Source of the DNA: Lytechinus pictus
Taxonomy: Eukaryota
Assembly (NCBI RefSeq): GCF_037042905.1
Contig: NC_087251.1
Span: forward strand, 5,210,001 to 5,274,000
Length of the DNA stretch: 64,000 nucleotides
Direction of reading: 5' to 3'
This document shows positions 30,501 through 60,832 of the stretch, one piece after another. Both the position numbers and the translations under genes were made by a program. Numbering within the stretch: position 1 is the stretch's first letter; the number at the start of each line of letters is the position of its first letter. Below the pieces are notes generated by a model. The model was not told the DNA's origin and did no database searches. It saw only the letters and a list, made by a program, of their open reading frames with translations.

Positions 30501-32298
30501 TTCTTATCTACCCTCTGGCAAGGCCAGTCTATATATAGACACACCATCTGAGGTCACTCAGGACAAGGATGACACTAGTCTTGACCATCACACCCTTTTG
30601 GATATTAGTTATAAGATAATTACAAAACTTTTTGGCTTTGACTGTTTGCATGTGTGCATGTTTTTATCTTCCAGAAAAAAAATGCAAGCTAGATATCTAT
30701 GAATTGTGGACTGAAGAGCTTATATTTACATTATATTCTCAGTATAAACCACATCAACTATGTGTGGTTTAAGTTCAGGCTTCCTTGATAATTGTGAGTG
30801 GTAACAGACATGTACTCTTAAAACTAACAACCATCCCTCGCATTTCATGGTACACTTTCAAGTGTTTAGCTGATATACCAATCATCATATCTAATGAATT
30901 GTACAAGGGGCACGGGAAATACACTGTAGTAGGCTCAGCTGTGACACTGATTAATTCTATGAAGGGCTGAACAATCAAGACTATTAACTGCCCATAGCAT
31001 TCAGTGCAGATTGATGGAAAGAGTCCACAAATAACTAGAAAAATCCACACCTTCCTTTTGACTCAGTTCTATATTTATCCATTCCTATATCTGCCCAATA
31101 CTATTTTTGTTTCAAGCAGATTTTCTCTAAAAATACAGTTGAATCCATTCATTTATCTTTAGCCCGTTTTAGATATCAGTTGAGCAGCTGCAGTGCTTTT
31201 CTCTTTCAATTTCTTAGGATTGTTTTGTATTGATAGCTGCTATTAACGTTCCTAGGTGATTTGTTTTTCAATTTGTTAAAAATGTGTAATTTTATTGATG
31301 TCCTCTCCATGTCTTTAGAATTATGATGTATTTTCTCCTGTAAGGGATGGACAAAGATTGTGCATCTGAAAACAATTTGTCTTGTATAAAAGTAGAATTT
31401 GTAACTAGACTAAAAACAATGAGAATAAAAAAAAGTTGGAAATTGACAAACTTACAGTAATTCTAGTTGTGCTTATTACATAGATGATGCATGTGGTATT
31501 ATTGATTATACTGAATTAAAGCCATGGGATTGATTTAATGTATGATACTGTGATCAAGTCTCAAGTTTATTCTTCTACTCAAATAGAAATTTGAAGTCAA
31601 GTCATTGTTCATTTTGCCACATTCAGGTATCATCAACGAACGATTATTTCTTGGGTTGAATCAGATCTTTTCTATTTGGGGAATTCGATGCGTTTATAGG
31701 GCTCAATGCCAAGTTCAAAATAATTCCCCCTTGTATTACAGGCCCTTTTCTTACACCCATTGTAAAAAGCAGTCTGTTGCTCAGACATGACACCTAATGA
31801 AAGGTCATGACACCCAAAGTTATTTTCATCCTGCTAATGTAACCCAAAGCCTGTCTCTTGGTTACTATCCTTGGACCAACTAATTAGATTTGATGAAAGA
31901 TATGTACAATTCAACCTGTGTGCTTAGAACAATGCAATGTTGAGACTAGAACCAAGACTATATCTGAATAGGAAATGTGAGAGGAAGAGCAGTTAAATGA
32001 GCATTGTTGAACTATGATTAGTCCAAGACATGACTCATGATATCTCAGAGATACTGTAATTGTTTTATCTCCATGATCAGTTAAAGTATGAATTGGTTTG
32101 TTTGATTTTTTTCTACCTCATGTAGATTTTGTAATGGGCATCCTAAAATCGTTCAACATTTTCAAAAATTTTATCAAGCTCAATCACCCTATTTTTGTTC
32201 TTTCAGATCCCTGTCTTACTTCTTTTTGAGCAACTGGACTCTTGTTGACCATCTACTTCTTTGAAGAGTGCAATGAGAGAAATAAGGAATGACTCGAA

Positions 32299-33669
32299 AT
32301 GAAGCAGTTACATCTATCTTCATTATACACTAACCTCAGTGAGGATCGGGCCATTGTTATCATCATGCAAGAATCAACAGTCACACCAACGTCTCATCTC
32401 CTTCCTAGCAATAGCACCAGTCAGGATATTCCAACTACACTTTTCACAGAGAGTGATGATTCTGAGTGGAGCTTCCAGTCTTACATCGCCCTGGGCATCA
32501 TCTTTGTCCTCATGACCGTAACCTTCATTGGAAATATCCTCATAATCGTTTCAGTTGCCAAGTTCAAGAGGCTGCAGATACCACCCAACTACATCTTGGT
32601 GAACCTTGCAGTGGCTGATCTAGGCGTGGCTGTCATGACCCTTCTCCTCTTTGCATTCAACTTCTTGAGCGAGACAGGAGGGGTACTTTGTTTGTTGCCA
32701 TACTGCTTCATGTCACTCTTCAGTGGTGTCTCTGTGCTCAATCTCAGCATCATCGCCTACGACCGCTACTCTGCTCTGGTTGAGCCTCTGAAGTACTCTG
32801 CACGCATTACATCGTTCCATATTGCAGTAATCTGCCTTGTGGTATGGATCTATGTTACTATTATATCTGTTATCCCTATGATTGGATGGTTCATTCCTCT
32901 ACCAGGGACCAGTATGGACATGCTCTGCTCACTCAACTTCTACCACAACTACACCTCCCTTGCTCAGGTCATAGCCATCTTCTTACCTGCTTTGGTGTGT
33001 ATGTTTTTTTGCTACTGCCGTGTAATGCTTGTTGCTAGACACCACACCAGGGCTATTTCAGCCGTCCAGTTCTCTCTGTTCCCTGGTGCCATTAAAAACT
33101 ATAACACTTTTAAAGGAAGCAAGTACTGGAAGACACTTGCTCTCATCCTAGGTGTATTTACTTTAACATGGGGTACGTTCATCACTACAGTCATAGTTGA
33201 AGTCTTCTGCAAAGCATGTGCTCAATTCCTGACCATGCACAACTACTCAGGATTATTGCTTTTGCTGAATAGTTGTCTCAATCCATGGATCTATGCGTTC
33301 CGCAATCAGGACTTCCGAGCAGCATTCAGGCGAATTTTAAGGTGCTTTTGGAGGCCATGCAAAAAGGGATCAAAGCGGTCCAACTCGAGTTCAGTCAATG
33401 AGCGAAGGAACTCACGCATGTCTGTTGCCTTGAGCAGGACAAACAGTCTCTGTGGAAATCTTCAGACACTTCAAATGCTCTATGAACAAGAAATGGCTCT
33501 CAAAAACAATAATCAGCCAAACTTTAAAGATGGTGAAGTAGAAACCAGACACACCTCCATTGGAAATAGCAAGAGCTCTGTTGAGAAGGAGGAGGTGACT
33601 GAACCACATGTTCCTTCCAGAGAAGACCAAGTTTCATCCAGAGAACCAATGCAAATTGAAGAAGCTTAA
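32299..33669 (+). CDS. Class A (rhodopsin-family) GPCR, single coding exon; non-aminergic, GPR119/adenosine/melanocortin-cluster-like orphan
   Basis: Seven hydrophobic segments with GN (TM1), NLAVADL (TM2), C3.25 and DRY (TM3), W (TM4), FLP (TM5), FTLTW (TM6), NSCLNPWIY (TM7) and helix 8 DFRAAF; N-glycosylation sequons in the N-terminus; acceptor tttttgttctttcag|32207. The true start may be the Met at 32365. Confidence 0.96.
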   Translation: MKQLHLSSLYTNLSEDRAIVIIMQESTVTPTSHLLPSNSTSQDIPTTLFTESDDSEWSFQSYIALGIIFVLMTVTFIGNILIIVSVAKFKRLQIPPNYILVNLAVADLGVAVMTLLLFAFNFLSETGGVLCLLPYCFMSLFSGVSVLNLSIIAYDRYSALVEPLKYSARITSFHIAVICLVVWIYVTIISVIPMIGWFIPLPGTSMDMLCSLNFYHNYTSLAQVIAIFLPALVCMFFCYCRVMLVARHHTRAISAVQFSLFPGAIKNYNTFKGSKYWKTLALILGVFTLTWGTFITTVIVEVFCKACAQFLTMHNYSGLLLLLNSCLNPWIYAFRNQDFRAAFRRILRCFWRPCKKGSKRSNSSSVNERRNSRMSVALSRTNSLCGNLQTLQMLYEQEMALKNNNQPNFKDGEVETRHTSIGNSKSSVEKEEVTEPHVPSREDQVSSREPMQIEEA

Positions 33670-36600
33670 ACTCTTTATTCAGTGATCAATGGTCTTCAGA
33701 TCATTAGAAAAATGAAATAATGCAAACTGTCCAGAGCAAAGAAAATTTGTCCATTAATTTTTTCATGTTCAGTACTTGGTTTGTAATGCCATTTTTTTTT
33801 CTTCAGAGAAAGGTACATGTTACCATAAACAATATTAAATTTGTAATTTACCCATAGAATATTCATTCACAGGTTTGCAATTGTGGATATTTTATTAATT
33901 GGAAGACAGATTCAATTTAGGATCTTATCCTATCCTGCAAAGAAATTTGCTGATATTCCTGTTCTTATGGATTTAATGAAGCAACCAGAAGGAATTAAAA
34001 GGAACATATGTACATTTTTTGAAAGTACAACTCCGTTCTGAGAAAGCTAATTACTAGGGCGAATTTACGGGGTAAAGAACAGATTGGGTTGAACCATTGA
34101 AAGGGGATTTGAGAGATGTTGCGTTCTTGAAAGTAAATAATGAAATAAAACTTTAAAAAATTGAATTGAATATTTTGCACTATGGTTTGAATGGCACCTT
34201 GCCTTTGTATGAATGCTTTATTTAAGGTTTGACAGAAGAAAAAAATGGTCAAATGTATAGCTGATTGAGGTTAATGGAAGACTTCTGACATGGTGCTAAT
34301 TTGCATGTAGGAGATACATGTACTGTATTTTCTAGTAAGACTAGATTTTAGGTGATTAGAATGTTCTTATCACATGACATCATGGAGACTGATTTATTTG
34401 TAGCAAGATATGGAATATTTTTGTGCAATCTTGTTTTTCATATGTGTGTACCAAAGAGATGTCTGAATTGCTAGGGAAAATTGATTTACTTAACAGTCTA
34501 CCTTTGTTCTATGATGTGATGTCATGCATTATCTTGTCTATGTATGTACGTACCTATACCAAAAAACATTTTTAATGTTCCAGAGCAGTCAACACTGGGC
34601 AAGAAGCAATTTCATTTGTACATGAGAATGTAATTTTATGAATGAAATGTTAATAACAGTTCTGTTATTTACGTGAAAGAAATATGACATGTGTGCAATT
34701 TTTTAACATGGAACTTGAAACAGAACTTTTTCTTTGTCAGTGTTAAACTAAAGCTCTGATCAGAGAATTGAAAAAAAGTTTCAGTCATGGGGAAGAAAAT
34801 TAATTACAAGTTATACTGAGTGGAAAAAACAATGTACAGAAAAGTCTTGTCCCTGTATTTAATTCAATATTTTAATATACTTCTTACATCATCATTTGTA
34901 AAGAACAATTATTTAGGATAGTGTAAGCTGTTTTATATGCTCAAATTTGTACATTGAAGTTGTATTTATTCTTGCAATGATGGTTTTTATACTTTTTCAA
35001 AGCATGCAAATGTTACATTTGCATTTTTTTGTACTACTTGTTCTATCTCGTGCATTTATATGAACATATAAAGATTTAAACCACTTGTACTCTTAAGAAT
35101 CGTGTGCCAAGAATCACATTTATTTGTTGGTCAATTACATTAGAATCAGGGGTCAACAAAATCTACTTTATGATGTTTGTTTACGATACTGTGAGTTTTT
35201 GAATGAGATGCTTTTATTTGGGGTAATAGATAAGTGAGCTTGGTAAAAAAAGAAGCTGTTTAAAAATATACCTTTCAAAGAAAAGGCTATTTTTTATAGA
35301 TTTGTCAAACATCAAAAAAAAAGTACACACAAATCACATTATGTTCTGCCGAAGTAATTATAGATTTCTTCAGTTACAAGTGGATTGAAGAGTACATACA
35401 CATTAAAAAAAAATATTAATTAGAGATTAATCAAGTATTTTGGAGATTTGTGTTTAAATGATTCTATGGAACAATCCACCGCTATTTACTTTTTGCTTAG
35501 TCGTTAATCGAGTGTTATTGGCCTGGGAAGGGGGTTCAATTCCTTACTGCTTATGTCAAGCCATCACACACTTCAAACAGTCTGTCACAGCACTTGTTTT
35601 ACAGACAAGGCAGAGGTTAGATTAAACTTTCAGCCAATAAGACTTCAATTTTTTAATACAGTTGATGCCTTGAGTAGAAGTCAAGTTGAGAGGGTGTGCA
35701 ATGATGTTATTGACATAGAGAGAGGTGTGCTTTCCATAAAATATGCCATTTTCAGGCTTTTGATTGCCATACAATTCATACCCTTCCTCTCCATCTCAGA
35801 ACAGTTTTACAAGGTGTGTGTTGGCTTGGTACAGTTGATAGTCTGCCAAGATTTTCACCCAATTTTTATCAGTTGTGCAATTTCATTCATATTAATTTTT
35901 CATTTATTTATCTGATTTCTGGTCATTTATTTTACACTGCATTTGACCATTGCTTGTCAAACTTGTCAATAAAATGATGCACTTAAGTTTTGATTATCCT
36001 CTTGAGTGTAAATTTAATGAGGAGAGAGAGTGGTAGCTGATAGAGGATGAAGAGTTAAATAAGAGGGAATGATGGCGGAGGGAGGGGACAGAGAGAGCAA
36101 GGAAGAGATAAAAGAAAGTAGAAAATGAGAGCAAGAAAGGAAGAGACATGGCAGGGGGGGGGCACTTGGATTTGGAAAGGTTAGGGGTGTGTGGCCACAA
36201 AATCTGAAACCATACCTAAGAGTGGAAGTTGCTTCTGGAATTAGGGGCTTAAGAACTCAAAAGTTAGATGGCCCTCTATGAATAGAAATGTTTGGGAACT
36301 GGAATTTAACATGAAATGTTGGCCTTTAGAACCGAGGCCTGAAATGAAGGGGTGGACAGGTTGGTGAATGAAAAAGGGTGAAAATTATGATTGGGAACGG
36401 CTGGCAAGGTTTGAAAAGGGGATCTTAAGGGCCACACATAACCATACTGCCATTATATGTGAGTGCCCCCCCCCCCCCCCCCCGGGACAGGTGTAAGAGA
36501 GGGAGAGAGATGGAGGGAAAGGGAATAGGGAGAGTGGGGGTGGGAGACTAAGCAAGAGCGAGAGAATTGGAAGTGGTGAAATTGGAGGAAAAGGAAAGGA

Positions 36601-36878
36601 AGCAAGAAAGAATAGAGGGGGATGTAAATGGAGGAAGAGAGGTTGATGCGAGTGGAGAAAAGAAATAGATGGGTTTGAGAAACAGAAAACAGGAGAAAGA
36701 TTAATGGAGAGAGAAGCACACACAGAAGGGGATGGTGGGAGGGAAACAAGAAAAAGTCATGATTCTAGTCATGATTAAGATAAATGCAAGTACTTAGTAT
36801 GCTATATCAACATGGAACAGAAAATGAGAAAGCCAAGATGACAAAGGGGTAGTGAGAAAGGGTATTAGGATTTAAAAT

Positions 36879-37444
36879 AACATGTGGAATGCCTCTGGCA
36901 GTCTCGCCTGCATTACGCGATTCAATATAGCAGCAGTGCCGACTTTGAAAACAGCTATTGAATAATTATTAACAAAAGAAAACACTCATAATAATAAAAT
37001 ACTATGTCCATTGACCCAACATGACCTTTGACTATGATCATGTGACCTAAGACGTGTGGAAAAACAATCATTCATACTTGATTAACCTTATATCTATGTT
37101 TCATGAACTACATGTGTAGATCCATAAACTTTTTAAAGTTCTGATGACAAATATCCCCAACACCGCCAAAGTTCATTGACCTTAAATGACCTTTGATCTT
37201 GGTCATGTGACCTGAAACACGCTCAGGATATTCAGGGATAAATGGTTACTCTTATGTCCAAGTTTCATGAACTAGATCTATAAACTTTTTAAGTTATGAC
37301 AATTCCACACATACCCCAACATGATCAAAGTTCGTTGACCCTAGATGACATTTGACCTTGGTCATGTGACCTTAAACTCAGGCAGGATCGTCGTCGTAAA
37401 AGCGGTGCCTATAGCCTTGCTCTGCTATGCAGGGGAGACAAAAA
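36879..37444 (-). mobile_element. HINE-like element with tgacctttgacc tandem core
   Basis: Starts aacatgtggaatgcctctggcagtctcgcctgc, carries ~3 units with gttcattgacc..atgacctttgacc, and ends gcaggggagacaaaaa (subterminal inverted repeat). Confidence 0.6.
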
Positions 37445-37734
37445 TTGACAGAGGAAGAGATAAATGGTATATAACAACTTGAACAAGAATATATTGGAAA
37501 CTGAACCAAGGGAAACCATATATAGTCTGAGAAAAGAATGAGTTCCTCTTTCAAATCCGGAGATAGAATGATGAACATTTTCATAGCATGTGCCTACATG
37601 AATGATGATGAATTAATGAGTCATAAATGGGATACTACAGATTGATATCATTGGTTAATGAAAAATAAGTTATCTGAGAATATTCTAAAACAGAGTTAAA
37701 TAAAATTTTCTACTCTCTCTCTCCCTTCACTCTC

Positions 37735-37857
37735 ATAGGACCCCATTGGAAATAAGCCTTTCGGCTTTCATGGGCTATCCTGTCAAGGTATTTCCTCAAT
37801 TTCATTGTAATCTCCTGTGATATTCTTGACGAATAAAATCAATCAATCAATCAATCA
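37735..37857 (+). mobile_element. LINE 3' terminal fragment
   Basis: Stem-loop region ccattggaaataagcctttcggctttcatggg, then aataaaa and an (atca)n tail. Confidence 0.5.
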
Positions 37858-38156
37858 TTTCTGTCCTCATGATTTCTCTCTCTCTTGTACCTCCCTCTCA
37901 CTATCTCTCTCTTCTCCCCTTTCTTTCTCTTCTTTCATAAATCTACATGTATTTAATTTGTCTTCACATCATACTAAACCACTCTCCCCCTTCCAACAAA
38001 AGCAATGGATAAGATACAAATTTGATCCCAATGTACGGTACTTTGAATGTTCATGAATACACTTTAACATTCTCTCTCTCTATTTCCACAAAGATTTAAG
38101 TATGACTTTAAGTCCTGCTTGGGTAGGCATATCTTTTTAGAATGCACAATCATATG

Positions 38157-38303
38157 CAAGGGCCGCGGAAGCGGGCGGGCTTCAGCCCCCCCCCCCCCAC
38201 TTTTTTCCAAAACCATGTAAAAAACGTACAAATGACCATATGATTGTGATTTTTTGCATGGTCAGCCCCCCCCCCCACTTTGAAAACCGTTCCGCGCCCC
38301 CTG
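38157..38303. mobile_element. Short TIR MITE with poly-C tracts
   Basis: caagggccgcggaa ... ttccgcgcccctg, with atatg on both flanks. Confidence 0.55.
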
Positions 38304-38382
38304 ATATGGAAGGATAGTGCACATCTTCTGTGCATGATCTAACCAATGCTGTGACCCATTAAACATTACATAAAAGTAGGCA

Positions 38383-38620
38383 AGTAATAATACTATATAT
38401 AGCATTTATGAGGCGCCAATTTATCTAGTTGCCATTCCAATGGCGCACTATTTGGTGCATTCAAGGAATTAATCCTGCCAGGTACCCATTCACTTCACCT
38501 GGGTCGAGTGCAGCACAGTGTGGATAAATTTCTTGCTTAAGGAAAACATGCCATGGTAAGGATTCGAACCTACAACCGTTTGAAAGGCAAGAATCAGAAT
38601 CACTAGACCACGACGCACCC
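38383..38620 (-). mobile_element. tRNA-derived SINE
   Basis: Minus strand: A-box tggtctagtga, B-box ggttcgaatcc, central ccacactgtgctgcactcgacccaggtgaagtgaatgggtacc and an L2-type tail gcgcctcataaatgctatatatagtattattact. Confidence 0.8.
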
Positions 38621-39565
38621 ATGATATTTCGTCAGACTTGAATATTCGTGAAACATCCCAGCATTACAAGAACAGGATGAAACATTCCCTCTTTATATTC
38701 TTGATAAGTACTTCATTAAATTCACACTGTTTCAGTTGCCAATGTTATGTTTATTTAGACAAACATGTGAGAAAAAAAATAACACGCAAAATCAGGGGAA
38801 AATTAAATTTTATTATCTTCTGAGTACAGAATAAACTGTGATCCATGATGAAGAAGGAGGAATTGATCAATGGTTTCAACCAAAAGTTTAAGTGTACACT
38901 GTATGTTTTGTAAAATGTTATATAAATCTTTAATATTATAAGATGCTTTCATTATTTAAGGGTGTTGTTTTTTATTGAACTATTGCCAGAAACTAAAAGT
39001 GTAATAGTTTCCTACCTGTTCAAACAGAAAGGATTGAATTAGAATCTAAAAGTGAATAAATAATGTGTGTGGGGGATGTCTTCTACTCGTCTTTATTTTT
39101 TAACCCGTTTCTGTTTAGATACCAGCTACCTATCATTAAACCACATAAGTTATATGACACTTTAAAAAATGAACACAAGATGGCAGTATGCACAAATGAA
39201 ACAGAGAAGGCATTAAGTTCATACATTGCAATCTCTTTCAAATTTGAATCCAATTCTTTACAGAAATACAGACATCATGGAAAAGTTCTGAAGAAGCTGA
39301 AATACTGTCTCAAATGCCAAGGTCATTTAAATATCTTTTTTTTTGGCCAGGTAAAGTTAAAACAAATATTGCACAAAGGACCAAACATTCAATACTAATG
39401 TTCAGCAGAGTGCTTATTATCATAGTAGATATTCAGAAATACCTGCAGTATGGGATGATAGTTCCTAATATTATCATTACATGATAGCCATCAATGGGTT
39501 TTGGTGTTTTTACTATGCCAATGATATGTCTTGTAGGGTAATAATGATTCAATGTTTCCAAAATG

Positions 39566-40714
39566 CTAACTTGGTTTTTGAACTGATATCACTTCTTCAA
39601 CATGCCTCACATTGAGAGAGTTTGCTTCTTGATGACAGAGAGACAGCATGCCTTCCAGATTACCCATCACATAAGGCAACATAGATTTTCTAATGTTCTC
39701 ATTCTCCATCAGTACCAGTATATCACTTAGCAATCCTTGAAGCCTAGATACATAATCAGGAGGAATGGTAGTTTCACCAAGAGGATTAGCCATAGGTTGT
39801 GATAATAGTACTTCCTGTGCAATGTTACCTCTTTCAGTATTTATATCCAATGGGGTAGTTTGTTGCAAAGATGTTTGTTCATCATGATTTTCTCTTCTGA
39901 CTTTGGTATTACAAGTATCAGCCATTTGGAGGACCTCTACCACAACATTGTATGCAGTATCAGATGGAGGTTGGACTGGTTTACTCTTTTGAAGCTGACG
40001 CTGAATGGCACGAATTTGAGATTTGTTTATAAGCTTTAGTCTGTGGTCATAAATGGTGGATGAAGATTGAAGGCCAGGGCTTGGGTTTTGAAATTCCTGG
40101 TAGATTTGGTTGACAGTAGAGCCAGACTCAAGCTTGCTTCTGATGTCCTTCCGCACTGATTCTGGGAGAGGATGGTGCACAAGGTCACTGGGTGAGATAG
40201 CATGAGAGTGTGACTTGTAATATGAAACATCCACTCTTCCTGTCTTTTTGCACTGCCGAAGCAACATTCTAGCTGGACACACCAAATCTGTTTTGATAAC
40301 ACCTTTCTGAAGTTTCCTTCTCGTTTTTCTGCCTGGTTGATTCTTGGATGTGTGGCTCCTTGAACTTCCATCTCTTTGGCAGATATAGTGTTGGTGAGTA
40401 ACAGAACTATGAGTCACACATCCTCGCTGTTTTGTGAAACAAACAAAATTTTGTGCTTCCTCCTGCATCTTCCACATGAAAAACTTGTCCATTGATGAAA
40501 AGGTTAACTCTGTCTTGTCTATATGTTTACCATGAACCACTTCAAGATGAGACAATAATTTGGTTTGATGATAGAACTTTGCAGTGCATCCAGGAATGGT
40601 GCAGGAGGTCCTCTCTCTCTTTGTCTCCTTTTTATGGATTGTTCGTTTATGGCGATTCAGGTTTGTTCGGAAACTGAATTTCATCTTGCATGCAGGGCAT
40701 TCAAACCCTTTATC
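39566..40714 (-). CDS. Last coding exon of a C2H2 zinc-finger protein with a MULE-transposase-like (WRKY/GCM1-fold) DNA-binding domain
   Basis: Acceptor ttcttcacag|GAT at 40714 extends the ORF in frame to DKGFECPACKMKFSFRTNLNRHKRTIH (C2H2), then CTIPGC..HLEVVH (C2H2), then FSSMDKFFMWK..EE..F, YICQRDG, KTDLVCPARM, VDVSYYKSHSH; no stops to 39566; AATAAA on the minus strand at 38971-38976. Confidence 0.85.
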   Translation of the reverse strand, partial: DKGFECPACKMKFSFRTNLNRHKRTIHKKETKRERTSCTIPGCTAKFYHQTKLLSHLEVVHGKHIDKTELTFSSMDKFFMWKMQEEAQNFVCFTKQRGCVTHSSVTHQHYICQRDGSSRSHTSKNQPGRKTRRKLQKGVIKTDLVCPARMLLRQCKKTGRVDVSYYKSHSHAISPSDLVHHPLPESVRKDIRSKLESGSTVNQIYQEFQNPSPGLQSSSTIYDHRLKLINKSQIRAIQRQLQKSKPVQPPSDTAYNVVVEVLQMADTCNTKVRRENHDEQTSLQQTTPLDINTERGNIAQEVLLSQPMANPLGETTIPPDYVSRLQGLLSDILVLMENENIRKSMLPYVMGNLEGMLSLCHQEANSLNVRHVEEVISVQKPS

Positions 40715-41578
40715 CTGTGAAGAAATGAATCAAACAAACAATATATTTCAATATTGTACAAGTTTGTTTAAAGGGAAGCATATTTTCCAAGCATTCTAAG
40801 TTTTCTACTACCCTGAAAGACAAATGACCAAGTAGGAGAACACTGTCTTAATACATGTATAACATATCAGGGGTGAGAACATTCCAGAAGTACTTATACC
40901 TTCTCCTTCATATTAAAACTACATTCCTACTCACAAAATCATCTTTTAAATGGATCTTCTACAATGAAAAGTATAAAGACTAAAATGCTTGAATATATGC
41001 ATTAGCATCCAGAAGATCATCACCATCTCTCTGATAACTTTCAAGACAAAAGAATGAATACCCAACAAAAGAAAATGTAAGTGTATTCCTTTTGACCAGA
41101 CCTATCTCTATATTCTTAGATTTTCTATGACAAAAAAAATGTTGCCTTTCAAATTAAAAGTATCAAAAGGCTTCAGCAGTTAGAAATTTACTGACAATTA
41201 CAAGGACAGTCTTTTAAAAGGGAACTTCTAAATAGAGCACTGTACTGTTGGGTAGTCTTTGTATTTATACCTGCTGATTGATAAAATGAAGTAGGTCTAT
41301 TGAGAAGTTTGACACCTGTGACTTTGATCTGAAGTCATCAGTCAAAAGGAATTCCTATATAATAGGGTACTTTGATCCTTTATTCCTTGGCAATATTGTT
41401 TGTTGTGAAGAGTAAAGTGGATTTCTAGTAAGATTAAGAATACATGAAACAATAAAGGAAAACACAGTGCTTGTAGTTATAGGAGATTAATTAATTCAAT
41501 GAGGCTGCGGTGCTTTACCTTTATATTAGTGTACCAACTAGTGTTGAAGATGAATATTGTGAATAAAATATAGACATG

Positions 41579-42604
41579 GGGCCCGTTTCTCAACACATGG
41601 ACAAGTTAGTCATATCTTTATCCACCAACCACGGAGTTAGTTCCAATCTTACTAAACCTGTTTCTCAAAAGGCTTCCTAACTAGAATACCTTGATATCGA
41701 TACTATCGGTAAAAAGAGCAGACGAGACGTAGCCTTAGTCACAAAATAGCATAAAATTCAAAAAGAAAAATTATTACAAAATTGCAAATATTACGATGAA
41801 TTGGGAAATAAATCTTTTCAAAATAATAGCACAGGTGAATTATGCATCATACATACTTAGACCATGAAGACTGGAGCATTCAATTGCAGAGAAAATTAGA
41901 TTATGAATAATTCATTTTATGACTAAAAAATCACTTGTGGACGCTGAGATGGGTACCCCCGGGAGACCCAATTTTAATAGTTTACGAAAGTAAACCATAA
42001 CGGTTTTCTTTGTAAAATGATGATAATTATACGGACTTTTACGATTCCAAACGTCATCAAAATATAGTTTAACGAAACATTTTTAATCATTGATACCGAA
42101 AGATACGATATTGGACAAATTATATGCATAAATTATAGATAGAATTCATCCAACTGTTAATAGGGGTCTGAAAACAACAAATACGAGTTCAGTTATGAAT
42201 GGCCTGACGTGGTAGAATCTTTATCGATTAAATCATTTTACTATTTCAAAATTAATGGTTTTGTGGCGTTTACCAACAGTTTTTATAGTTTCTTTGTATT
42301 ACAATTATCATTGAATGCATTAACCCACTTGTTTTGTGATGTATATTTCAACCTCTACCATTGATTACGTAAGTTTATAATTTTAAAATTTCTAGGCACT
42401 TTCGCATGTCAGTCTACCCACGTGATGCCACTACGTCATTAAGAAAGAAGTTAAGACAGGTTCGGAGGTGTCATAAATATTTAGTGAGGTTGTTGTACCC
42501 GATCTTGGTAAAGAGGGCTTCGTGAAACGGTTAGCGGACAAGTAGCTCACTATCTCCGATTTAGTCAAGAAGTTAGACTTATGACGGTGTTGAGAAATGG
42601 GCCC
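41579..42604. mobile_element. Harbinger-type MITE, copy A (1026 bp)
   Basis: atg|gggcccgtttctcaacac ... gtgttgagaaatgggccc|atg with a 3-bp TSD ATG; reverse complement of 44185-45204. Confidence 0.9.
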
Positions 42605-42646
42605 ATGGTGTCTTCTCTAGACTTGATTTGATTAATTCCTAATTAC

Positions 42647-42682
42647 CTGCCCATGTTGTTTGCCACTACCATAATCTGCCAT
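42647..42682 (-). CDS. Candidate first coding exon of the zinc-finger gene (MADYGSGKQHGQ; exon 42647-42713)
   Basis: Minus strand: acceptor ttttacaatcttgacag|, Kozak-like aagATGg, 12 codons and a phase-0 donor CAG|gtaatt matching the phase-0 acceptor at 40714. Confidence 0.6.
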
Positions 42683-43614
42683 CTTGAAGTACATGTAACC
42701 AAACGGCTAATACCTGTCAAGATTGTAAAAAGGGAGAGTATCCATTATTCTTATAGGAGTGGGCTATACAGGGGTCAAAATGATTTTTTTTTACCTTAAC
42801 ATCTCATCATTAAATGACAATATTTTTGGTGTTGGGTCAAAAGAAAAAAGTATGTCAGCCAAAAACCAAAGATAGCTGCCATTTTCCCAGACAATCGCAT
42901 TTTTGCCATAATATTGTAATTTTGTAGAATTCCATATGCATGTCTTGATAAATATCACAGCATTCAGTAAAGCAATGGTGACATTGCAAACCAAAAATCT
43001 GACCTTTTTTGTTATAAAATGCTGAGTTGTTGGAAAATTTAGGAATAAGCATGTTATTTATTTATACTAGAACTTACAAGATGAATTTGTTTTTAATGAT
43101 TCTTTCAGCCTGATGAATTAATTTGAAATTTCAAATTGCTTTGAAAATTAGATGACATTAACATCAAGTGACATTAAAGGGGTTACAGTATCTTTTTCCC
43201 CTTTTAAGTTTATTTCCCCCCGTTTTGGTGCATTTCAGGCCAAAACGGAATAATAATCTTTATTTTGGTTCAGTAAATTTTTTATATTTTTATGAAATAA
43301 AGACAAAAATCGATGAGCCCAGTCGGGGGGATTTTGCATTGTTAACCCCTTAATGGTGGCTGCACGATTACGAGCCGTCTGTGTACGAGGAGAAATTAAA
43401 AAATAAAAAAAATGTTTAAAAACTCCTCGAAACAGACGTATGGCTGCCAGCTGTCTAGATGCCAGCCGGCAGCCAGCCGTCTGTCTGGTACGGTACCGTA
43501 CCGTGGTATCTTACAACATGTCTAATGTTAGTCTAGGACTAGGTACATGTACCCTAGGTAGGTCTATTCTTAATTTGGATTCTTAAATGATTGAGTAAAA
43601 TGAACTGAACTTAC

Positions 43615-44184
43615 ATTCAACAGGTAAAGTGCAGTGGCCAACTCGAGCCCGGCCCCAGGCCCAGCGCGGCCGCCCCGATCAATCCCGCCTAGCCGTAGGG
43701 CTACAGACACAGCTCTCTCTCTCTCTGAGTCTGAGACTCTGTATCTGTTAGGTGATCCCCGGCCCTCCACTGTTTTGGAGATTCTCAGAAACAAATAGAA
43801 CAATTCCCAGTCTGGTAAGTTAGAGATTCAACATCAAGTTGGAGCGGTGTTCATGAATTTTATGTAGAAAAAGAGAGATTTGAGGAGCAGACTATTATTC
43901 ACTTCGGAAGGGAGACCAGGTTGATGGGTTAAATTAAAATTGGTGTGGATCACCATGGACGTACGTACAACAACACCAAACTATCGGACTCGCAGTCGCT
44001 CCAAATCTCTATCAGGCTAGCTCGATCTTGAAAGCAAGCAAGCGCAAGCGAGCTGGCTGTATCACCTGACTTTCTTAATTTTGATCATGTGACTCAATTA
44101 TACGCTCATCACACACGTACATAGAGATATATACTTAGTATACATCTCTATGCACACGTACACCGCACTGTCATCATCATCCAG
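43615..44184 (-). promoter_or_regulatory. CpG-rich promoter / non-coding first exon region of the zinc-finger gene, probably shared with GLO1
   Basis: GC/CpG-rich stretch 43630-43700, minus-strand donor gaat|gtaagt at 43609-43614, E-box-like tcatgtgac at ~44085; lies between two divergent genes. Confidence 0.5.
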
Positions 44185-45204
44185 GGGCCCGTTTCTCAAC
44201 ACCGTCATAAGTCTAACTTCTTGACTAAATCGGAGATAGTGAGCTACTTGTCCGCTAACCGTTTCACAAAGCCCTCTTTACCAAGATCGGGTACAACAAC
44301 CTCACTAAATATTTATGACACCTCCGAACCTGTCTTAACTTCTTTCTTGATGACGTAGTGGCATCACGTGGGTAGACTATGACATGCGAAAGTGCCTAGA
44401 AATTTTAAAATTATAATCTTACGTAATCAATCATAGTGGTTGAAATTACATCACAAAACAAGTGGGTTAATGCATTCAATGATAATTGTAATACAAAGAA
44501 ACTATAAAAACTGTTGGTAAACGCCACAAAACCATTCATTTTGAAATAAGTAAAATGATTTAATCTAAAAAGATTCTACCACGTGAGGCCATCCAATATT
44601 GTACTCGTATTTGTTGTTTTCAGACCCCTATTAACAGTTGGATGAATTATATCTCTAATTTATGCATATAATTTGTCCAATATCGTATTTTCGGTATCAA
44701 TGATTAAAAATGTTCCGTTAAACTATATTTTGATGACGTTTGGAATCGTAAAAGTCCGTATAGTTATCGTCATTTACAAAGAAAACCATCATGGTTTACT
44801 TTCGTAAACTATTAAAATTGGGTCTCCCGGGGGTACCCATCTCAACGTCCACAAGCGATTTTTTAGTCATGAAATGAATTATTCATAATTTAATTTTCTC
44901 TGCAATTGAATGCTCCAGTCTTCATGGTCTAAGTATGTATGATGCATAATTAACCTGTGCTATTATTTTGAAAAGATTTATTTCCCAATTTATCATAGTA
45001 TTTGCAATTTTGTCATAATTTTTCTTTTTGAAAATTATGCTATTTTGTGACTAAGGCTCGTCTGCTCTTTTTACCGATAGTATCGATATCAAGGTATTCT
45101 AGTTAGGAAGCCTTTCGAGAAACAGGTTTAGTAAGATTGGAACTAACTCCGTGGTTGGTGGATAAAGATATGACTAACTTGTCCATGTGTTGAGAAACGG
45201 GCCC
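44185..45204. mobile_element. Harbinger-type MITE, copy B (inverted relative to copy A)
   Basis: cag|gggcccgtttctcaacacc ... gtgttgagaaacgggccc|ctg; colinear reverse complement of 41579-42604 with scattered substitutions. Confidence 0.9.
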
Positions 45205-45207
45205 CTG

Positions 45208-47288
45208 GGGCCTGTTGCATGACGAGATGCGCGATACGTAGGAACGTCCTAGGACCATTCTTTCGAGATAGGAAGATTGGCGACAAATCAGCGCTTTCCG
45301 TTTCACGAAGGCAATTTTGTCTTCCAAGTCCGCGACATCGTTTGATATCGATAGTATCGGAAAAATATTTAGTCTTCATCGTCACCTGAACCTTTTATTT
45401 CTGAATGACGACTTTACATAAAATCCGATATTTCAATAAAAGGAGATCAAATAATGTTTTATTTATTACTGATAGTAGAATTGATGTATGGAGCTTACTT
45501 TATGAGGTTAAAAGAGAAAAAACTTTAAAGATTCACAAACATAACTAAATAAAATCGAAATTTTCATTATTTCCCTTATTTAGGACACGGTGTCCTTTTA
45601 GAGACACCTTTCTTTGATATTTCAACGAAAGAGACCCTTGTCCGACATAAAAATTGATTTAACTAAGTAATTTCGACATTTATTAGTTCAATATTCTGTA
45701 TTTTTATAGAATACTTGTATATAATGATAATTTTGCAAATTATGCGTTAATATGTTATTTGTTGAGGTAAATATAGGGTTTGAATGGAGTAAACAAAATC
45801 AACAGTGTCTGATTGTATGAGACTAAAAACGAAAATATGAGAGGCTGCGTGTGAAAAATCTAATTTATTTATTTTATTTGTCAGATATAACGCAAGAAAT
45901 ACAAATGTGAGTGTTTAGAGTATAAACATACCTCAGTTGCATGATGAGTAACAGAAGAAAATGAAAATATGAAAATTGCTGCAAACATGTCCAAGTGGAT
46001 AAAGTAGTACTTTGCAATAATAAATAAAAAATAGAAAAGGTGTGAATCAATCCGCAATGGAAAAAAATACTTTTACAGAAATAATGCTAAATATGACAAC
46101 GATCATAAACGCTGGTCATATTTAAAGATGATCACTTAATTTATGGAAGCTTATATAAGAATATAAGGTTTAAGAAATAACATAAAAAATATATATGTTC
46201 AACATTTCAAAGTCAAGGAGTATAGAGATTATATGCTATGACATAAGGGCCGAAAGGGGCCTACCCTAAGATTTAAAATGCGCCTCTTCGTATGGACTTT
46301 CCATAATCTTTTCTTTAATGAACTTATCTTCATTTGTAATGATTGTGATGGATTCGTAAGCTATAGGCTTAATCTGTATCTTAAATTCAATATTAGCTGC
46401 AGGTTTTTTGTTTTGTTTCACTGTTTCAAATCCAACAATTAATTTTCTTTGATTAAAATAAATCTCAGCAAAAAAAATAATTATAATGAAAATAAAATAA
46501 ATAAATGATTTAGCATGTTTAACATCTTAGTTTTGTTTGTCTTGTTTTTTTTTTTGCTGAATGTTATTGAACACGTTTCATTTACCTTACATAATTTCTT
46601 TTAAAGAAATTTGTTGTTTATCTATAATAAGAAAGAATGAGGGGTCGGCTAAAGAGATATAGTGCCGCCCATTTCAAGTATTTCAAGTTTATTTTTTTAA
46701 TAGAAAAGGGGTAGGGATAAGACGGAGGGAGAATAGAAGAAAACATATTTTAAAAAAATATTTGGCCCTATACATTACCCCCGGGAATAATACATGTACC
46801 CTGGAGAAGTTAAAATGACATCCGTTTTTGGTCGTCCTGTCGTGCAAAAAGACGACCTGAAATTGATGACAACTAGCCCCATATAAAAAATAACTTGGCG
46901 CCATCCCAGATAAAATGCATCAGAGTGCAACCAAAAAAATGTTTAGAGGTTATATGTCAGTGTGGCTTGCCGTAAATGCATTTTCTCTCAATGCCGACGG
47001 TGGCGAGCGGTGTGCAAAGAAGATCATGCCTACGTAGGACATGTCTGGAGGTGTCTTTCCAAGGACCATTCTTCATATCGCCCAAATCGGCTTTGTGAAA
47101 CAGTTGAGCGATATCTCGTTCTTACGTAGAATGGTTCTACGAAAGACCCTTTCATGCAACAGGCCCCTGGAGGTGTCTTTCCAAGGACCATTCTTCGTAT
47201 CGCCCAAACCGGCTTTGTGAAACAGTTGAGCGATATCTCGTTCGTACGTAGAATGGTTCTACGAAAGACCCTTTCATGCAACAGGCCC
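45208..47288. mobile_element. Harbinger-type non-autonomous element with a duplicated right end
   Basis: ctg|gggcctgttgcatga ... tcatgcaacaggccc|ctg (45208-47166), then a second copy of the last ~120 bp ending caggccc|cag (47288). Confidence 0.85.
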
Positions 47289-47413
47289 CAGTGTCAGATC
47301 ACACATGCACACTGCACTTGGCTCTTTTGAGACAGCCTACGTAAAACTAAAAGGTCATAAGTTTTGATCTGTAATTCAACTAATTATATGAATTATTGGT
47401 GAGCATATAAACG

Positions 47414-47488
47414 ATGGCTGAATCAAAGAATTGTCTGCCAGCTGAAGAAGTAGATGCTTGCTGCTCTGAACCTGATGCTTCAACAAAG
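47414..47488 (+). CDS. GLO1: Lactoylglutathione lyase (glyoxalase I), exon 1
   Basis: acgATGg; MAESKNCLPAEEVDACCSEPDASTK|gtaatc resembles the animal GLO1 N-terminus (..CCS..D.STK); phase 0 joins exon 2. Confidence 0.9.
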
Positions 47489-47714
47489 GTAATCTCAAAA
47501 TATGCGATAAACAGATAAAACGAGTACCGGTACCGGTCATGCCGTTACTGACTAATTAAATGTGTAAATGCAGTCTTGACCACTCGTTATCCCCGACCAT
47601 TTGCCATACAGCAAAAGGTAGGGGATGGGACTAGAGGTATGTGAGGCGTAGTCACATACACAAAATTTGTTTTAAAAATGTAAGACTAAGAGTAATAGAG
47701 TTTGACTTGAATTA

Positions 47715-48087
47715 ATTCAAATCTTCAATTCAAAATCACAAGAGGTATTGATCGGATAGATCTGAGTTAGTAATAGTAGCCTGTTCCATCTTGATGATAA
47801 TAAAAGGACCAGAGATCATAGTATGAAATTCAGGAAATACAGATATAGATTACAGACACGGCAATATGCTTTTACAGTTAGAAGCATTAATAACTGGAAT
47901 GCTTTGCCTGAAGTAGCAGTTTCTGCTACTACATGTAGTGTAAATGCATTTAAATCTGCAATCGAGAGGCACTGGAAATCCCATCCATTAAAATATTCAC
48001 CATACCAGAGACAACCCTACGTGACGAGGGACAAATTAGCTTTATAGCTTTATGTCTCTACATCCAAGTAAATCCAAGTAAGTAAGG
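47715..48087 (+). mobile_element. CR1 LINE 3' end
   Basis: RTRDHSMKFRK..RLQTRQYAFTVRSINNWNALPEVAVSAT..VNAFKSAIERHW is the typical CR1 ORF2 C-terminus; tail atccaagtaaatccaagtaagtaag. Confidence 0.8.
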
Positions 48088-50150
48088 AAGACTTACCAGT
48101 CTTTCCCCCATAACAAAAGTTGATCTTCCTTCCGTTGTTGCTGTAATTTATCTTGGAATCAACGATATATTGTCATTTATCGAAAATTCGAAAGACACTA
48201 AAATATCGTCGGAATGTATCGGGAAATTTGTCATTTTCAGCAGCAACGCATAGACTTGTACGTAGAGGATGTAACGCGCCCTCTTGTGCTCAATTAAAGA
48301 AAGCTAACGGAAGCGACCACACCAATGACCTCTACAGAGCTGTACAAAGATGCTTCTCACCACAGATACCAGTTTCCGGTGATGCTTCTATTTCGAAGCT
48401 CCGAGATCCAGCGATAGTAGTGTGGGGTTGTAAAATGATACAGTTTATGGGGGAAAATAAATGTTCAACTGAAGAAGGGAATAACATAAGCTCAATCATA
48501 CATCTAACAGAAGCAAACGGAGAGGAGAAGAGGGAACTAAACTCGATGACACAGGAACAAAATGGAACTTAACTCTAAGTCTGGTAGTGCACTGTTTTAT
48601 TTGCTGGGCTAATTTGCCTCAGCTAAACTCATAATGGCAATACCAAAATTAGCATATATTTAAATTACACAAAATCAACCAATGAAAATCAAGAGAATGG
48701 AGGAGCCAACTGAAAGTGGAAAAGTCTAATTCATAAAAATAACCAATAAGAGATAGATGATGGAGATGAATAAGATGTTGGGATGATTACATAATAAGAA
48801 TGTTGAACAAAAGAATCAGATGTGGGAATGTAATGAATGAACACATCTGAATAGGAAAGGAATGACGGGAGAAGTAGGTTGAAAGTCAAATGTAAATGGA
48901 TGACAACAGAAGCATGGAGAATTTAAACAAAGCTGAACTAAATACCAAAGCTTGAACTACAAATAACTAAACTATTACAGGAAACCAAATGTCAAAATAA
49001 CAGTCCTACAGTAGTCTCTTTCTCCCCTGACACTCAGTATTTTTTTTGAATATTTTATACACAAGAATAATTGTTTTAGCGCCATCAGCTTTGTTTATTC
49101 TGTAATGAACAGTATCTTGTCGTACGGTGAAAGGAAATATGATACTTTTTGGGGGGGTTATTGCTTCTTCTCTCGATCCCTCTCTTTTTGTTGAGTACTA
49201 TCATTGAGGGTTATTTTGGTTTTTCTATTATTTTTCATATTGTTGTTGAATAGTAATTTTCATCATCATATCACTTTTGTAAGCCCCCATTTTGTACCGC
49301 CCTGAAATTAATATGGGTGAAGGGTGGAATATGAAAAGGGGCAAGGACCTCAAGTGATAAAACAGATCATAATTACGTTCCAATTTTTTTTTTCTTTCTT
49401 TTATTTATCCCCTTGAAAGCCATAGAACAGATTTGTTATAAATGTTCATTTTATGTGATAATTTGTAAAAAAAATAATAATTTCATTTGATTGTAATCCT
49501 TTTTTTTTATTTGAAATAAATAACATTAACTTGAAACTTTCCCGCCCTCCCCCTTGAAAATTTGGATCTGCCCCTAAATAGGCCTTTGTGGTAAGAGATT
49601 TTTCATTTCATTTATTTTTTAATGAAAATCCTATAGGTTTGGCTTTTATATCAATTTGTATCGATACGAAACAAAATTGCAAATTTGTCTTGATTGAGGC
49701 TACCAAGACTTCCTTACCAGAATGCATTACGAGCAAAGTTTCGTCGAAACCTCAACGGTCAGTGGTCCAAACGGGTTGATGAGCCTCTATGGTTTCGTGA
49801 GATCTTTTTTCTTTTTCGATTTGTCACTGTCGAACACCATAGACGTAATGGAGGCAGCTGGAAGAGGTTCACATAGAGAAATCGGTGAGTTTTTATTCAT
49901 TTTTTGTATTGTATTGATGACTTTAATGTTATTTCCGTCAGAATAACGTTTTGAATCAACGGATCAGTTCAAGTATGAATTGATTCGCAATGCTTTGGGC
50001 AACGGATGGAGGGAAAATGAGCAATGTATATTTCTACAAATGGAAGGCATACAGGCTAACAGCCGAGAACGAGGTTATATTATAACCTCGTTCGTAGGAT
50101 GAGTGGTCTTGACCATTGTTGACTCTACTTGTCTTGACTCTTCAGTCTAA

Positions 50151-50766
50151 AAGGTTGGTCACATTTGCTCTACGACTACGGCGGCCGTACGGCGAGTCAA
50201 AAACAGCCGTTTTAGCATTTTATTTTAGTTACCGTACTGTTACATTAGACAGCTGGCAGCTGTCTGTTTCGAGGAGTTTTTTAACATTTTATTTTTTATT
50301 TTTTTCTCCTCGTACACAGACGGCTCGCAGCCACCATTAGGGGGTTAACAATGCAAAATCCCCCCGTCCGGGCTCATCGATTTTTGTCTTTATTCCATAA
50401 AAATATTTAAAAAGAACTTGTCCAAAATAAAGATTATTATTCCATTTTGGCCTGAAATGCACCAAATGGGAAAAAAATAAAAGGGGGAAAAAACAGTGAC
50501 TTACTTCAGCTGTCACGCAACTCCCACTTCCTGGTTTGGTTTATCCGAACTTAATACATAAACATATGGCCATTGAGTCCCTGTACAGATCGAGATAGAA
50601 CTTCGGTCTCTGTATTTGGTGATGGAGCCAACAGAGTTCAGCGGAACAACCAACATAACAGAGATCGATGCTTTTGGTCTAGAGCTACATATTTTGTATA
50701 AAAATGAATAAAACGGCTGTTTTCAACTCGCCGTACAGCCGCCGTAGAGCAAATGTGACTGAGGTA
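50151..50766. mobile_element. Harbinger-like MITE
   Basis: About 60-bp TIRs gtcacatttgctctacg..gcggccgtacggcgagt..aaaacagccgtttta / taaaacggctgttttcaactcgccgtacagccgccgtagagcaaatgtgac, with TWA flanks. Confidence 0.75.
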
Positions 50767-52520
50767 TTAGTCTTGTCATGTCATCCACACTAACAGGCAC
50801 AGGCAGGTTAAAAAATGAAGGGGGGGGGGCCAACTGCGCACCTAACAATTTAATGGCATTTTAATATCCTGGTTTAATTCACCAGTCAATTCACTGCCGT
50901 TTATTTCGTCAGTGCTGGTGACTTCTTTCAGTTCAGTTCAGTTCAACTATTCAATTCCCATATTCTAAACATTTTACAATACATTGCCTTGGGTAAAACA
51001 TGCAATTCAAGATGAAATATAGCACTTCAATAGTATGAACATACAAATTGGTATTGAAATTAGGTATACCGGTAGCTGTAAAAAACCATGAAGGTCTTAA
51101 TAACATAAGATTTGATCAATTAATAAAAACGGAGAACAAGTTCAGTGAATATTCAGTAAATAAAAATGAATTGCGTCTTGCACCAAGACAAACCCCAGAA
51201 CAAACATACATGAAAAGGGTAGGAGAGAATGAAAAGCAGAGGGGGGGGGGACTGAGAGTAGAAAGATGAAAAAACATTTAAAATTCAACGAGAGTCACGT
51301 TTGAAAATATAGCTTTAGATTGTGCTTAAATCTGTTATAAAATGAAATTGAGGTTGTACATGTAGGGAGTGAATTCCAGAAAGGCTGTATTTTGATGCCC
51401 TCACATGAAATTCCTGATTTTCAATACTTGAGGTTTTCCACCATTCTGATTCAGGGTTTTTTTAATGTATATCTGTCTATATATACAAGTATTATAGGTG
51501 TAAAATTTGTGGCCTTTGCCTATTAGAATCGTGCTGATACTCGCATGTCCAGAGAAAGGGGCACTGCTCAGAAATGGGGCACTAACAGCGGTGGATCCAG
51601 GTAGGGACACATCTGACCCGTGCCCCCCCCCCCCCTTTGAGAGTAACAGCAAATATTTGTCAGGGGATGAGGGATATGTATACACAAGTGAGGATCTTTT
51701 TTCTCAAAATTTTCTTTGACATAATTTTTCATTATTTGGGAGTGAAGACCTTTTTTTTTTTTTTTTTTGCTTGTCAAATTATTCCTCACATAAATCCCCA
51801 TTAATTAGGAGCAAAGATCCTTTTTTTGGGGGGGGTCTTTTTAATTTTTTGTCAGTAAAAAATGCCCCCTTCTTTTGGGCGGGTTAGACTGATGTGACTG
51901 AAGGCTTCAGTCTCTGTTTGTCGGTTCCACTGGACTACGTCTTGTTTAGGAGGAGGAATAAAACAAGGCATAAGCGATGTTGTGTCTCACCCACTTTTTG
52001 AAATAATCAGAATTATCGCGATTTGCGACGGCATGCAACAGAATTGTATCAGAAGTTTATTGTGAAATAAGTGGGATGTAATAACCTTATAAAATATGGA
52101 AAGGGCTTTTTTATAAAATGCCACTGCATTTTCACCTGCATCTATTGTCGTTTTTTATATGGATTATACTAGCATTGATATTTTTCATTTGTGAAGGTGA
52201 AAAGTGTTTGTGGTTGTAGTCTAGCTGAGAGGTTTAGATGATATAGTCCAGACCTTTCGTTGGACAATGCGAACGCTTATTTGCGATGGTAGTTGATTTT
52301 GGAAGAGACTTTTGTGCCCGTCGTCATGGTCGTAAAACTCTGTCCTGCAATGCAAATTGTGTGACATGAGATTTTTTTTTTGTTTCGCATCTGGAACGGA
52401 AACATTCAATCTGCTTTTCGTGTGCAAAATTCTGAGTTGCTACTATGGTAACAGCAATATATCCGATTTAGGATGACTTTCCAAAGCCACATTTGGTTCC
52501 TCCCAGAGCTCGAGAGGCCG

Positions 52521-52828: not shown

Positions 52829-53392
52829 AATTCGAATCTAATCCCCCATTTCTGGGGAAAGTAAAGCATAATGCCCAGTACATTGTGTGCAAGAGGCATA
52901 TCGTTTGTGTAGGAGTAATCAAAAGAAAAAAAAACCCACACGTATACATGCTGTGTACATAATCAACGCATGCAAAATGGTTTTCGGCTGGAGAGGTGAT
53001 TTGACCCATGGAATCAATTGCCAGAGATCCACCAATAATCCACATTAAATGCAATATCGATTCGATGAACTGTAATGATCTATATCTAAGCCTTAATTCA
53101 GTAACTTTTTCCTCACTCAATATGTACTCGATTTGTTTGAAAAACCACTTTCTTATCCATGTCATAATCTATTTTAGGTCCTGCATTTCCAATATCTCAA
53201 GCCATCAGTGGTAATGTACATGCATGTATGGTGCGGGTGTCGCGGGAAAGAATTTTGCACACGAAAAGCAGATCTGTAGGGCCTGTAACCCCCCTGTAAC
53301 ACAAAGCTTAGCATTGATTGTAGAGCAGTTCTCTACGTTTGATTCTATTGACTATAATGTACAATCAATCTTAAAAATCAAGTGTATGATTA

Positions 53393-60463: not shown

Positions 60464-60749
60464 TAAATTCTAAAATGTTTAAAAACTCCAAACAGATGGA
60501 TTCTAGCTGTCTATAATGTTAGGCCTAGCATAGGGGTTGATTCGGGATTTTCCGAAAGAGGGGGCACACATTTTCCTGAGGAAAATTTAACAAGAACAAG
60601 AAAAAGGTCCTCACTTGTGTATGAATGAAATATTCCCATAGAGCATGGGCAAAGCTTATCCTGAACTTTGTTTTTGTATTGTCCTTAACTTATTTGGTAA
60701 AATCAAAGTAGTTCAGCTGAATAATTCTTCCCATTTCCTTTCTCTTCAG

Positions 60750-60832
60750 GGTTTTATAATGCAGCAGACCATGTACAGAATTCGAAATCCTCGCAGGTCA
60801 CTTAAATTCTATACAGAAGTTCTTGGAATGAG
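60750..60832 (+). CDS. GLO1: Glyoxalase I, exon 2
   Basis: tttctcttcag|GFIMQQTMYRIRNPRRSLKFYTEVLGM(R)|gtacac; glyoxalase I signature QQTMxR...FYxxVLGM including the metal-ligand Gln. Confidence 0.95.

Follow-up and report, generated by a model that had tools for sequence, protein, structure and literature searches.

Reuse by the host of the DNA-binding domain from transposases of Mutator-like elements (MULEs) is a general route that has been in print since 2006. In its accessible text, Babu et al. 2006 (PMC1702500) describe transposases of sea urchin, Ciona and Caenorhabditis that combine two classic zinc fingers with an insert-type WRKY-GCM1 finger, and regard animal members without a transposase as probable transcription factors. 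Here we describe a gene on the minus strand of a 64,000-nucleotide stretch of the Lytechinus pictus genome (contig NC_087251.1, positions 5,210,001 to 5,274,000; the whole stretch is called the window, and positions are counted from its first letter). The locus is LOC129265102, whose isoform X1 is RefSeq protein P0001 (398 aa, 100% identity in a protein search). Our preferred reading, to which we give a probability of roughly two in three, is that this is an intact sea-urchin gene retaining both ends of a MULE transposase without its DDE core and SWIM finger, and that its product is a regulator of host genes that binds specific DNA sequences in the nucleus; that it is an old domestication by internal deletion, now a sea-urchin gene pair, is well supported. 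Like the insert-type family of Babu et al., the protein has two C2H2 fingers, a leading helix, a long insert between the cysteines and an HxH motif, and like their solo animal type it is close kin of transposase-bearing variants (57 of its 150 best matches, and its sister P0023). In strand 4, where a tryptophan is described as typical of insert-containing members (PMC1702500), the protein has Tyr181; Tyr occupies this position in at least 90% of 105 rows, transposases included. The accessible text of Babu et al. names neither this gene, nor an urchin solo form, nor the retained C-terminal hairpin, nor an internal deletion.

Analogues exist in fungi and plants. Yeast Aft1 (Rcs1) and Aft2 and Candida Rbf1 are stand-alone, MULE-derived WRKY-GCM1 proteins (for Aft2 itself, section 15 of PMC1702500), and Aft2 is the best fold match of the urchin protein; however, identity is 11%, the match includes neither a C2H2 pair nor a hairpin, the fungal origin is independent, and function is proven there, whereas that of the urchin protein is predicted from its sequence and a model. 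Plant FHY3/FAR1/FRS proteins are also derived from MULEs, and FRF1-4 resemble the urchin gene in keeping the DNA-binding domain while lacking MULE and SWIM domains (PMC13306707, available text). These plant proteins again have an independent origin, Pfam FAR1 reaching only 13 bits in the urchin protein against a cut-off of 28.1, and according to the same text FRF have full-length sisters in their genome, whereas none was identified for the urchin gene. Closer to hand are long degenerate relatives, P0023 and the Amphiura filiformis genes P0183 and P0025, which share the same front at 35-43% identity and, in P0023 and P0183, the hairpin, but keep an RNase H-like core and SWIM finger with changed catalytic residues. 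Literature searches with five gene and protein identifiers, and likewise by topic, found no paper on the gene, most subscription journals lying outside their reach; the available main text and five supplements of PMC10027918, on animal FHY3-like genes, include no echinoderm or Strongylocentrotus, and the parts available of PMC6446971, PMC13228809 and PMC13359780 hold nothing on this gene.

The gene and the domains of its product are arranged as follows, residues being counted in P0001.

48097 to 48111, minus: alternative first coding exon of isoform X2 (MGERL), with a GT donor; joined to the main exon at 40714, it yields the N-terminus of XP_063957808.1 in RefSeq
42647 to 42713, minus: first coding exon of isoform X1, with ATG at 42694 or 42682, its own AG acceptor and a GT donor; residues 1-16 of P0001
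39566 to 40714, minus: main coding exon, 382 codons and stop, AG acceptor at 40715/40714
40529 to 40705, minus: two C2H2 zinc fingers, residues 20-78; finger 1 scores 26.2 bits with Pfam zf-C2H2 (cut-off 25.2)
40193 to 40528, minus: insert-type WRKY-GCM1 finger with leading helix, residues 79-190; C128, C162, H185, H187 and a 33-residue basic insert
39983 to 40192, minus: three-helix block resembling a helix-turn-helix (HTH), residues 191-260; helices as in the predicted model
39767 to 39982, minus: Q/T/E/P-rich linker, residues 261-332, poorly conserved, at the position of the DDE core and SWIM finger of long relatives
39617 to 39766, minus: C-terminal helical hairpin, residues 333-382, matching the post-SWIM segment of P0023, P0022, P0163 and others
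38971 to 39097, minus: candidate polyadenylation signals, AATAAA at 39097 and 38976

The main open reading frame (ORF) spans 39566-40729 on the minus strand with 387 codons open and is the sole long one of the region; read from the acceptor at 40714, it is the uninterrupted exon of about 380 codons of the original prediction, and every protein motif quoted there is present in the translation of 39566-40729. Joining 42694-42647 to 40714-39566 reproduces the start and end of P0001. The spliced ATG exon that had been proposed agrees with RefSeq in its GT donor at 42647 and its junction with 40714, and is probably an internal exon because it has its own acceptor at 42713. All splice sites of isoforms X1 (three accessions) and X2 are canonical GT-AG, on the basis of RefSeq models. 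The polyadenylation signal claimed earlier can be retained as a set of candidate sites, AATAAA also occurring at 38814 and 38755, but the hexamer is frequent in AT-rich DNA such as this. In an older RefSeq model, P0010 (423 aa), translation continues past the stop at 39566 and takes 25 extra residues from 39491-39565, which relative to the stop in the window is an allele or assembly difference. A GC-rich patch on the minus strand at 43600-43720, ending at a donor-like GTAAGT near 43614, is possibly an untranslated exon of one of the three X1 transcripts.

The argument for a MULE origin begins with the front of the protein. Both C2H2 fingers have CCHH intact in 11/11 full-length urchin-type proteins (alignment A3), the WRKY-GCM1 ligands (C128-x33-C162, H185-x-H187) are invariant in 33 rows out of 33, and the basic insert, with 10-11 lysines and arginines in 33 residues, is retained. 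A profile of nine urchin-type proteins, run against 1.84 billion representative proteins, gave 666 matches at E<=1e-10, the best 150 of which were examined. Behind the shared front, local profiles detect a DDE-core match in 57 of these, in some for the first part of the core only, which supports the suggestion that the N-terminal half is the DNA-binding end of a MULE transposase; in 64 others nothing but the front is seen, although many of these may be fragments, 18 have the front and hairpin, and the remaining class consists of 5 finger arrays without relation to the family. Among 30 hand-picked matches, a selection enriched for long ones, 14 pass the Pfam cut-off for MULE or ZSWIM1-3 RNaseH. 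A word-based search for longer relatives returned none, which is a false blank given the many found by the full profile search. Among Atlas matches, C2H2 clusters come first (0.95, 0.92) and MULE clusters follow (0.87 and lower, leads only), and a sequence search of the PDB returned C2H2 fingers only.

Predicted structures point the same way, with modest scores. A first model from 9 sequences was poor (predicted local distance difference test, pLDDT, 57.7), with the linker below 50; for the front part it was replaced by a model of residues 17-276 built from 105 sequences (pLDDT 89.8, predicted template modelling score 0.79), which contains the helix at 75-89 and the WRKY-GCM1 strands. Its best fold match is yeast Aft2 (Z 7.4, 108 residues aligned, root-mean-square deviation 4.8), and its sheet matches WRKY1 (Z 5.4), WRKY33 (Z 5.2) and GCM (Z 4.6). 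The HTH-like block resembles that of the transposases SETMAR (Z 5.2), TnsB (5.1), Mos1 (4.9) and ISCth4 (4.5), weak values within the range of common arrangements. The original prediction had proposed a Foldseek and profile check of this region against MULE, FAR1 and WRKY-GCM1 domains; neither model had a Foldseek match at E<=0.001, and RnlA rows in the Foldseek output were taken as chance, while by Z score the best families are indeed Aft2, WRKY and GCM. These fold families agree, if modestly, with the MULE assignment made from sequence.

What distinguishes the gene from a transposase is what it has lost. In the protein and in six frames of the 64-kb window, the DDE profile found no match (best independent E-value, iE, 0.75) and neither did the SWIM profile (best iE 0.69), so that the expected loss of both is upheld, with no remnant in any frame of the window. 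It had been supposed that a linker and short helical segment had taken the place of the catalytic part; for the C-terminal helices this is refuted, since they are homologous to the segment behind the SWIM finger of long relatives. No family is named for this hairpin in Pfam or Atlas. Of 143 targets, a hairpin profile built solely from 13 urchin-type short proteins matched 9 with iE<0.01 and 12 with iE<0.1, as against 0 at iE<0.01 and at most 1 at <0.1 in ten local shuffles, and 0 and 1 in the reversed set; a second-round profile was seeded with nine of its own first-round matches, which accordingly match by construction. In the long relatives the match is located behind the SWIM finger, and alignment of the segments is clean. 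Pairwise, residues 83-259 of P0001 correspond to 5-180 of P0023 (E 3e-49) and 348-385 to 704-741 (E 5.7e-5), the matched ends being separated by 88 residues in P0001 and by about 520 in P0023. Judged by this homology, the hairpin is the transposase's own post-SWIM segment and the gene arose by internal deletion, likely a single one of about 500 residues.

Internal deletion is also the usual origin of non-autonomous elements, and one might therefore suspect a MULE deletion derivative or a neutral fossil, particularly as the transposase-derived coding part lies in one exon and solo-domain parasitic elements of fungi are described by Babu et al. (PMC1702500, accessible text). We consider this very improbable. 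As the original prediction had stated, no pair of terminal inverted repeats (TIRs) surrounds the gene: when 40715-52000 is compared with 33701-39565, the best inverted match is 18 nt long (E 0.19); TIRs and target site duplications are described as MULE features in the available parts of PMC6446971, PMC13228809 and PMC13359780, the first of which also notes MULE families without TIRs. In five named species, at 51-95% identity, the frame stays open and the zinc ligands are preserved, with conservation varying by domain; at the protein level there is one locus per assembly apart from near-identical doubles; and both paralogues branch in the tree according to the split between species. A MULE-type front, the missing DDE and SWIM, the missing TIRs and intactness in five species together bear out the proposal of a domesticated MULE transposase without catalytic domain.

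The same short, full-length build is found in L. variegatus (95% identity), Strongylocentrotus purpuratus (68%), and Diadema antillarum and D. setosum (51%), with all zinc ligands retained in the full-length urchin-type rows, as expected of the conserved host gene that had been predicted. The proposed lineage specificity holds for sea urchins, as represented by Lytechinus, Strongylocentrotus and Diadema, and the gene has a paralogue. This is the diverged LOC129264384 of L. pictus, outside the window, to which proteins of L. variegatus and of the two Diadema species correspond; gene and paralogue lie on equally long contigs in four species, which in D. antillarum measure 1.79 Mb and have accessions seven numbers apart. 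The paralogue's basic insert is 18-19 residues long instead of 33, a loss of 14-15 residues. In NCBI nr alone, L. pictus has a further entry, P0006 (LOC129264045), which is 99% identical over 130 residues and then carries two frameshifts; it is probably an assembly double. A metagenome scan for orthologues gave 408 pattern matches, none of them confirmed.

The front-domain tree comprises 53 rows drawn from a 137-row quick tree, itself made without 22 short or non-matching rows, and its bootstrap is unsettled. In it, all 13 short proteins of urchin type group together (97/94), their sister being the long P0023 (99/96), and the clade stands at 94/92 when the hairpin is added. With the hairpin it splits into the gene's group (91/98) and the paralogue's group (100/100), and because each holds Diadema and Lytechinus members, one deletion followed by a duplication before these two parted would account for the pair. 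Diadema and Lytechinus split roughly 200 million years ago.

Identity to Diadema differs by domain: 69% in the C2H2 pair, 64-65% in the WRKY-GCM1 finger, 51-53% in the helical block, 23% in the linker and 45% in the hairpin. That the hairpin is conserved (45-74%) while the linker decays would suit a looser role in chromatin or as an adaptor, in which the fingers bind DNA or nucleosomes without sequence specificity and the hairpin docks a complex, and no DNA motif is known for the protein. Retention of the basic insert and of all twelve zinc ligands is what specific DNA contact would lead one to expect, however, and known solo WRKY-GCM1 proteins are specific factors in the accessible text of PMC1702500, so that we hold such a role to be improbable.

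A more serious competitor, and the main rival to a host regulator, is a transposon repressor. Here the origin would be the same, while the protein would serve defence or attenuation, sitting on the terminal repeats of MULEs or on sites that belong to long domesticated sisters, with its hairpin poisoning their multimers, as proposed for FRF1-4. What the gene has kept is precisely the end that recognises sites, together with a hairpin that might mediate interaction, its sequence changes fast, and FRF proteins have been proposed as competitors (PMC13306707, available text). D, D, CxxH and E are all intact in 15 of 43 full cores, so that the wider family includes transposases that look competent. 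The nearest long relatives (P0023, P0022, P0045 and P0025) are nevertheless catalytically degenerate, and no long sister or active partner was found in an urchin, although the search was word-based and this is weak evidence. The span from Diadema to Lytechinus over which the gene has been retained is long compared with the time in which families of transposons usually turn over, and the loss of 14-15 residues from the paralogue's basic insert suggests new targets. On balance we think repression unlikely, though clearly less so than the adaptor role.

For the preferred host regulator we envisage the following history. An ancestral transposase with two C2H2 fingers, WRKY-GCM1, DDE, SWIM and hairpin would have been immobilised; its middle would then have been lost, the gene duplicated before Diadema and Lytechinus parted, and host promoters gained through short 5' exons. 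Absence of the catalytic Glu from P0023, P0022 and P0045 suggests that activity was lost before the deletion. The 260-residue front would bind DNA like Aft2 and WRKY domains, making contact through the WRKY-GCM1 sheet and basic insert with assistance from the fingers and HTH-like block, and the disordered linker and amphipathic hairpin may recruit a partner or a second subunit and so act on host transcription. The protein cannot cut DNA.

Several observations weigh against this interpretation. Pfam FAR1 is weak in P0001 (E 0.17), and in seven proteins it gives 13-18 bits in five, below the cut-off, and no match in two. The Z score of Aft2, with its deviation of 4.8, lies under the tool's own mark of 8, and the best Foldseek E is 3.9e-3. 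Expression evidence consists of RefSeq models with two first exons and not of reads. Copy number was taken at the protein level only, P0006 and two 99% copies in D. antillarum being tentatively read as assembly haplotypes. The eight orthologue-like rows are not one clade in the front tree, where their monophyly is not rejected (approximately unbiased test, p-AU, 0.40), and come together at 91/98 with the hairpin. The branch of P0023 is long. Finally, the rapid protein change, with 68% identity to Strongylocentrotus, would also fit an arms race.

The front and hairpin occur without a core in 23 rows, among them Amphiura P0026 and Branchiostoma P0078/P0182, a group that was defined by architecture after a tree had been seen and that may include rows from erroneous gene models. 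One origin for all 23 is rejected (p-AU 2.7e-53), but not a shared one for the short forms of Amphiura and those of urchin type (p-AU 0.061). As far as these trees go, the DNA-binding domain plus hairpin form occurs on several unrelated branches, and the same cut on other branches points to a function for the unnamed hairpin. We tentatively suggest that the hairpin of animal 2xC2H2 MULEs might be a self-association module, and that deletion of DDE and SWIM alone might be a shortcut taken convergently more than once (in sea urchins, a brittle star, amphioxus and further lineages), supplying ready-made DNA-binding regulators that work as dimers, or brakes that act dominant-negatively on the transposon of origin. 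What is new here is that the gene kept a hairpin lacking annotation and that the same deletion recurs.

This work extends the repertoire of sea urchins by two conserved, so far unstudied genes that probably encode DNA-binding regulators, and if the hairpin is rightly read, the pair would be an old and experimentally tractable example of convergent core deletion. To a specialist the case is tidy rather than surprising, since the general route has long been known. Transgenesis and CRISPR knock-in are reportedly established in L. pictus, so that the step from transposase to regulator is directly testable there.

Other members of the family took different courses. P0022, P0183, P0184 and P0185 are about 70% identical to each other and, like P0025, are long with a degenerate catalytic site; all five are likely separate full-length domestications. 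P0036, P0050 and P0030/P0173 represent intermediate deletions in which front, SWIM and hairpin are kept and the DDE core is gone, and P0030/P0173 additionally carry an Ulp1-type protease domain.

The window also holds unrelated repeats. Two non-coding elements of 1.03 kb, at 41578-42608 and 44181-45205, are 95% identical, have 18-bp TIRs and flank the first coding exon of X1 in opposite orientation. These inverted repeats are not MULE TIRs of the gene: each is an element complete in itself, 18-bp TIR included, and the two do not bracket the main exon. The first copy has a 3-bp duplication, ATG, and we take the elements to be Harbinger-like; the two copies could pair in the X2 pre-mRNA and loop the X1 exon out. 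A second repeat is represented by a 265-bp piece (43193-43457), 85% like part of an element of about 640 bp at 50130-50790 with its own inverted ends, and a 122-bp tandem pair lies at 47045-47289. On the plus strand at 53390-54481, a reverse transcriptase ORF (RVT_1, E 2.3e-20) is probably a fragment of a long interspersed nuclear element. Two neighbouring genes were recognised.

32293 to 33669, plus: intronless rhodopsin-family receptor (7tm_1, E 2.6e-41), the nearest 3' neighbour, convergent with the gene
60690 to 60830, plus: GLO1-like exon, placed at 60762, about 12.6 kb beyond the first coding exon of X2

The motif of the latter is presumably glyoxalase I-like, in line with the GLO1 neighbour named originally.

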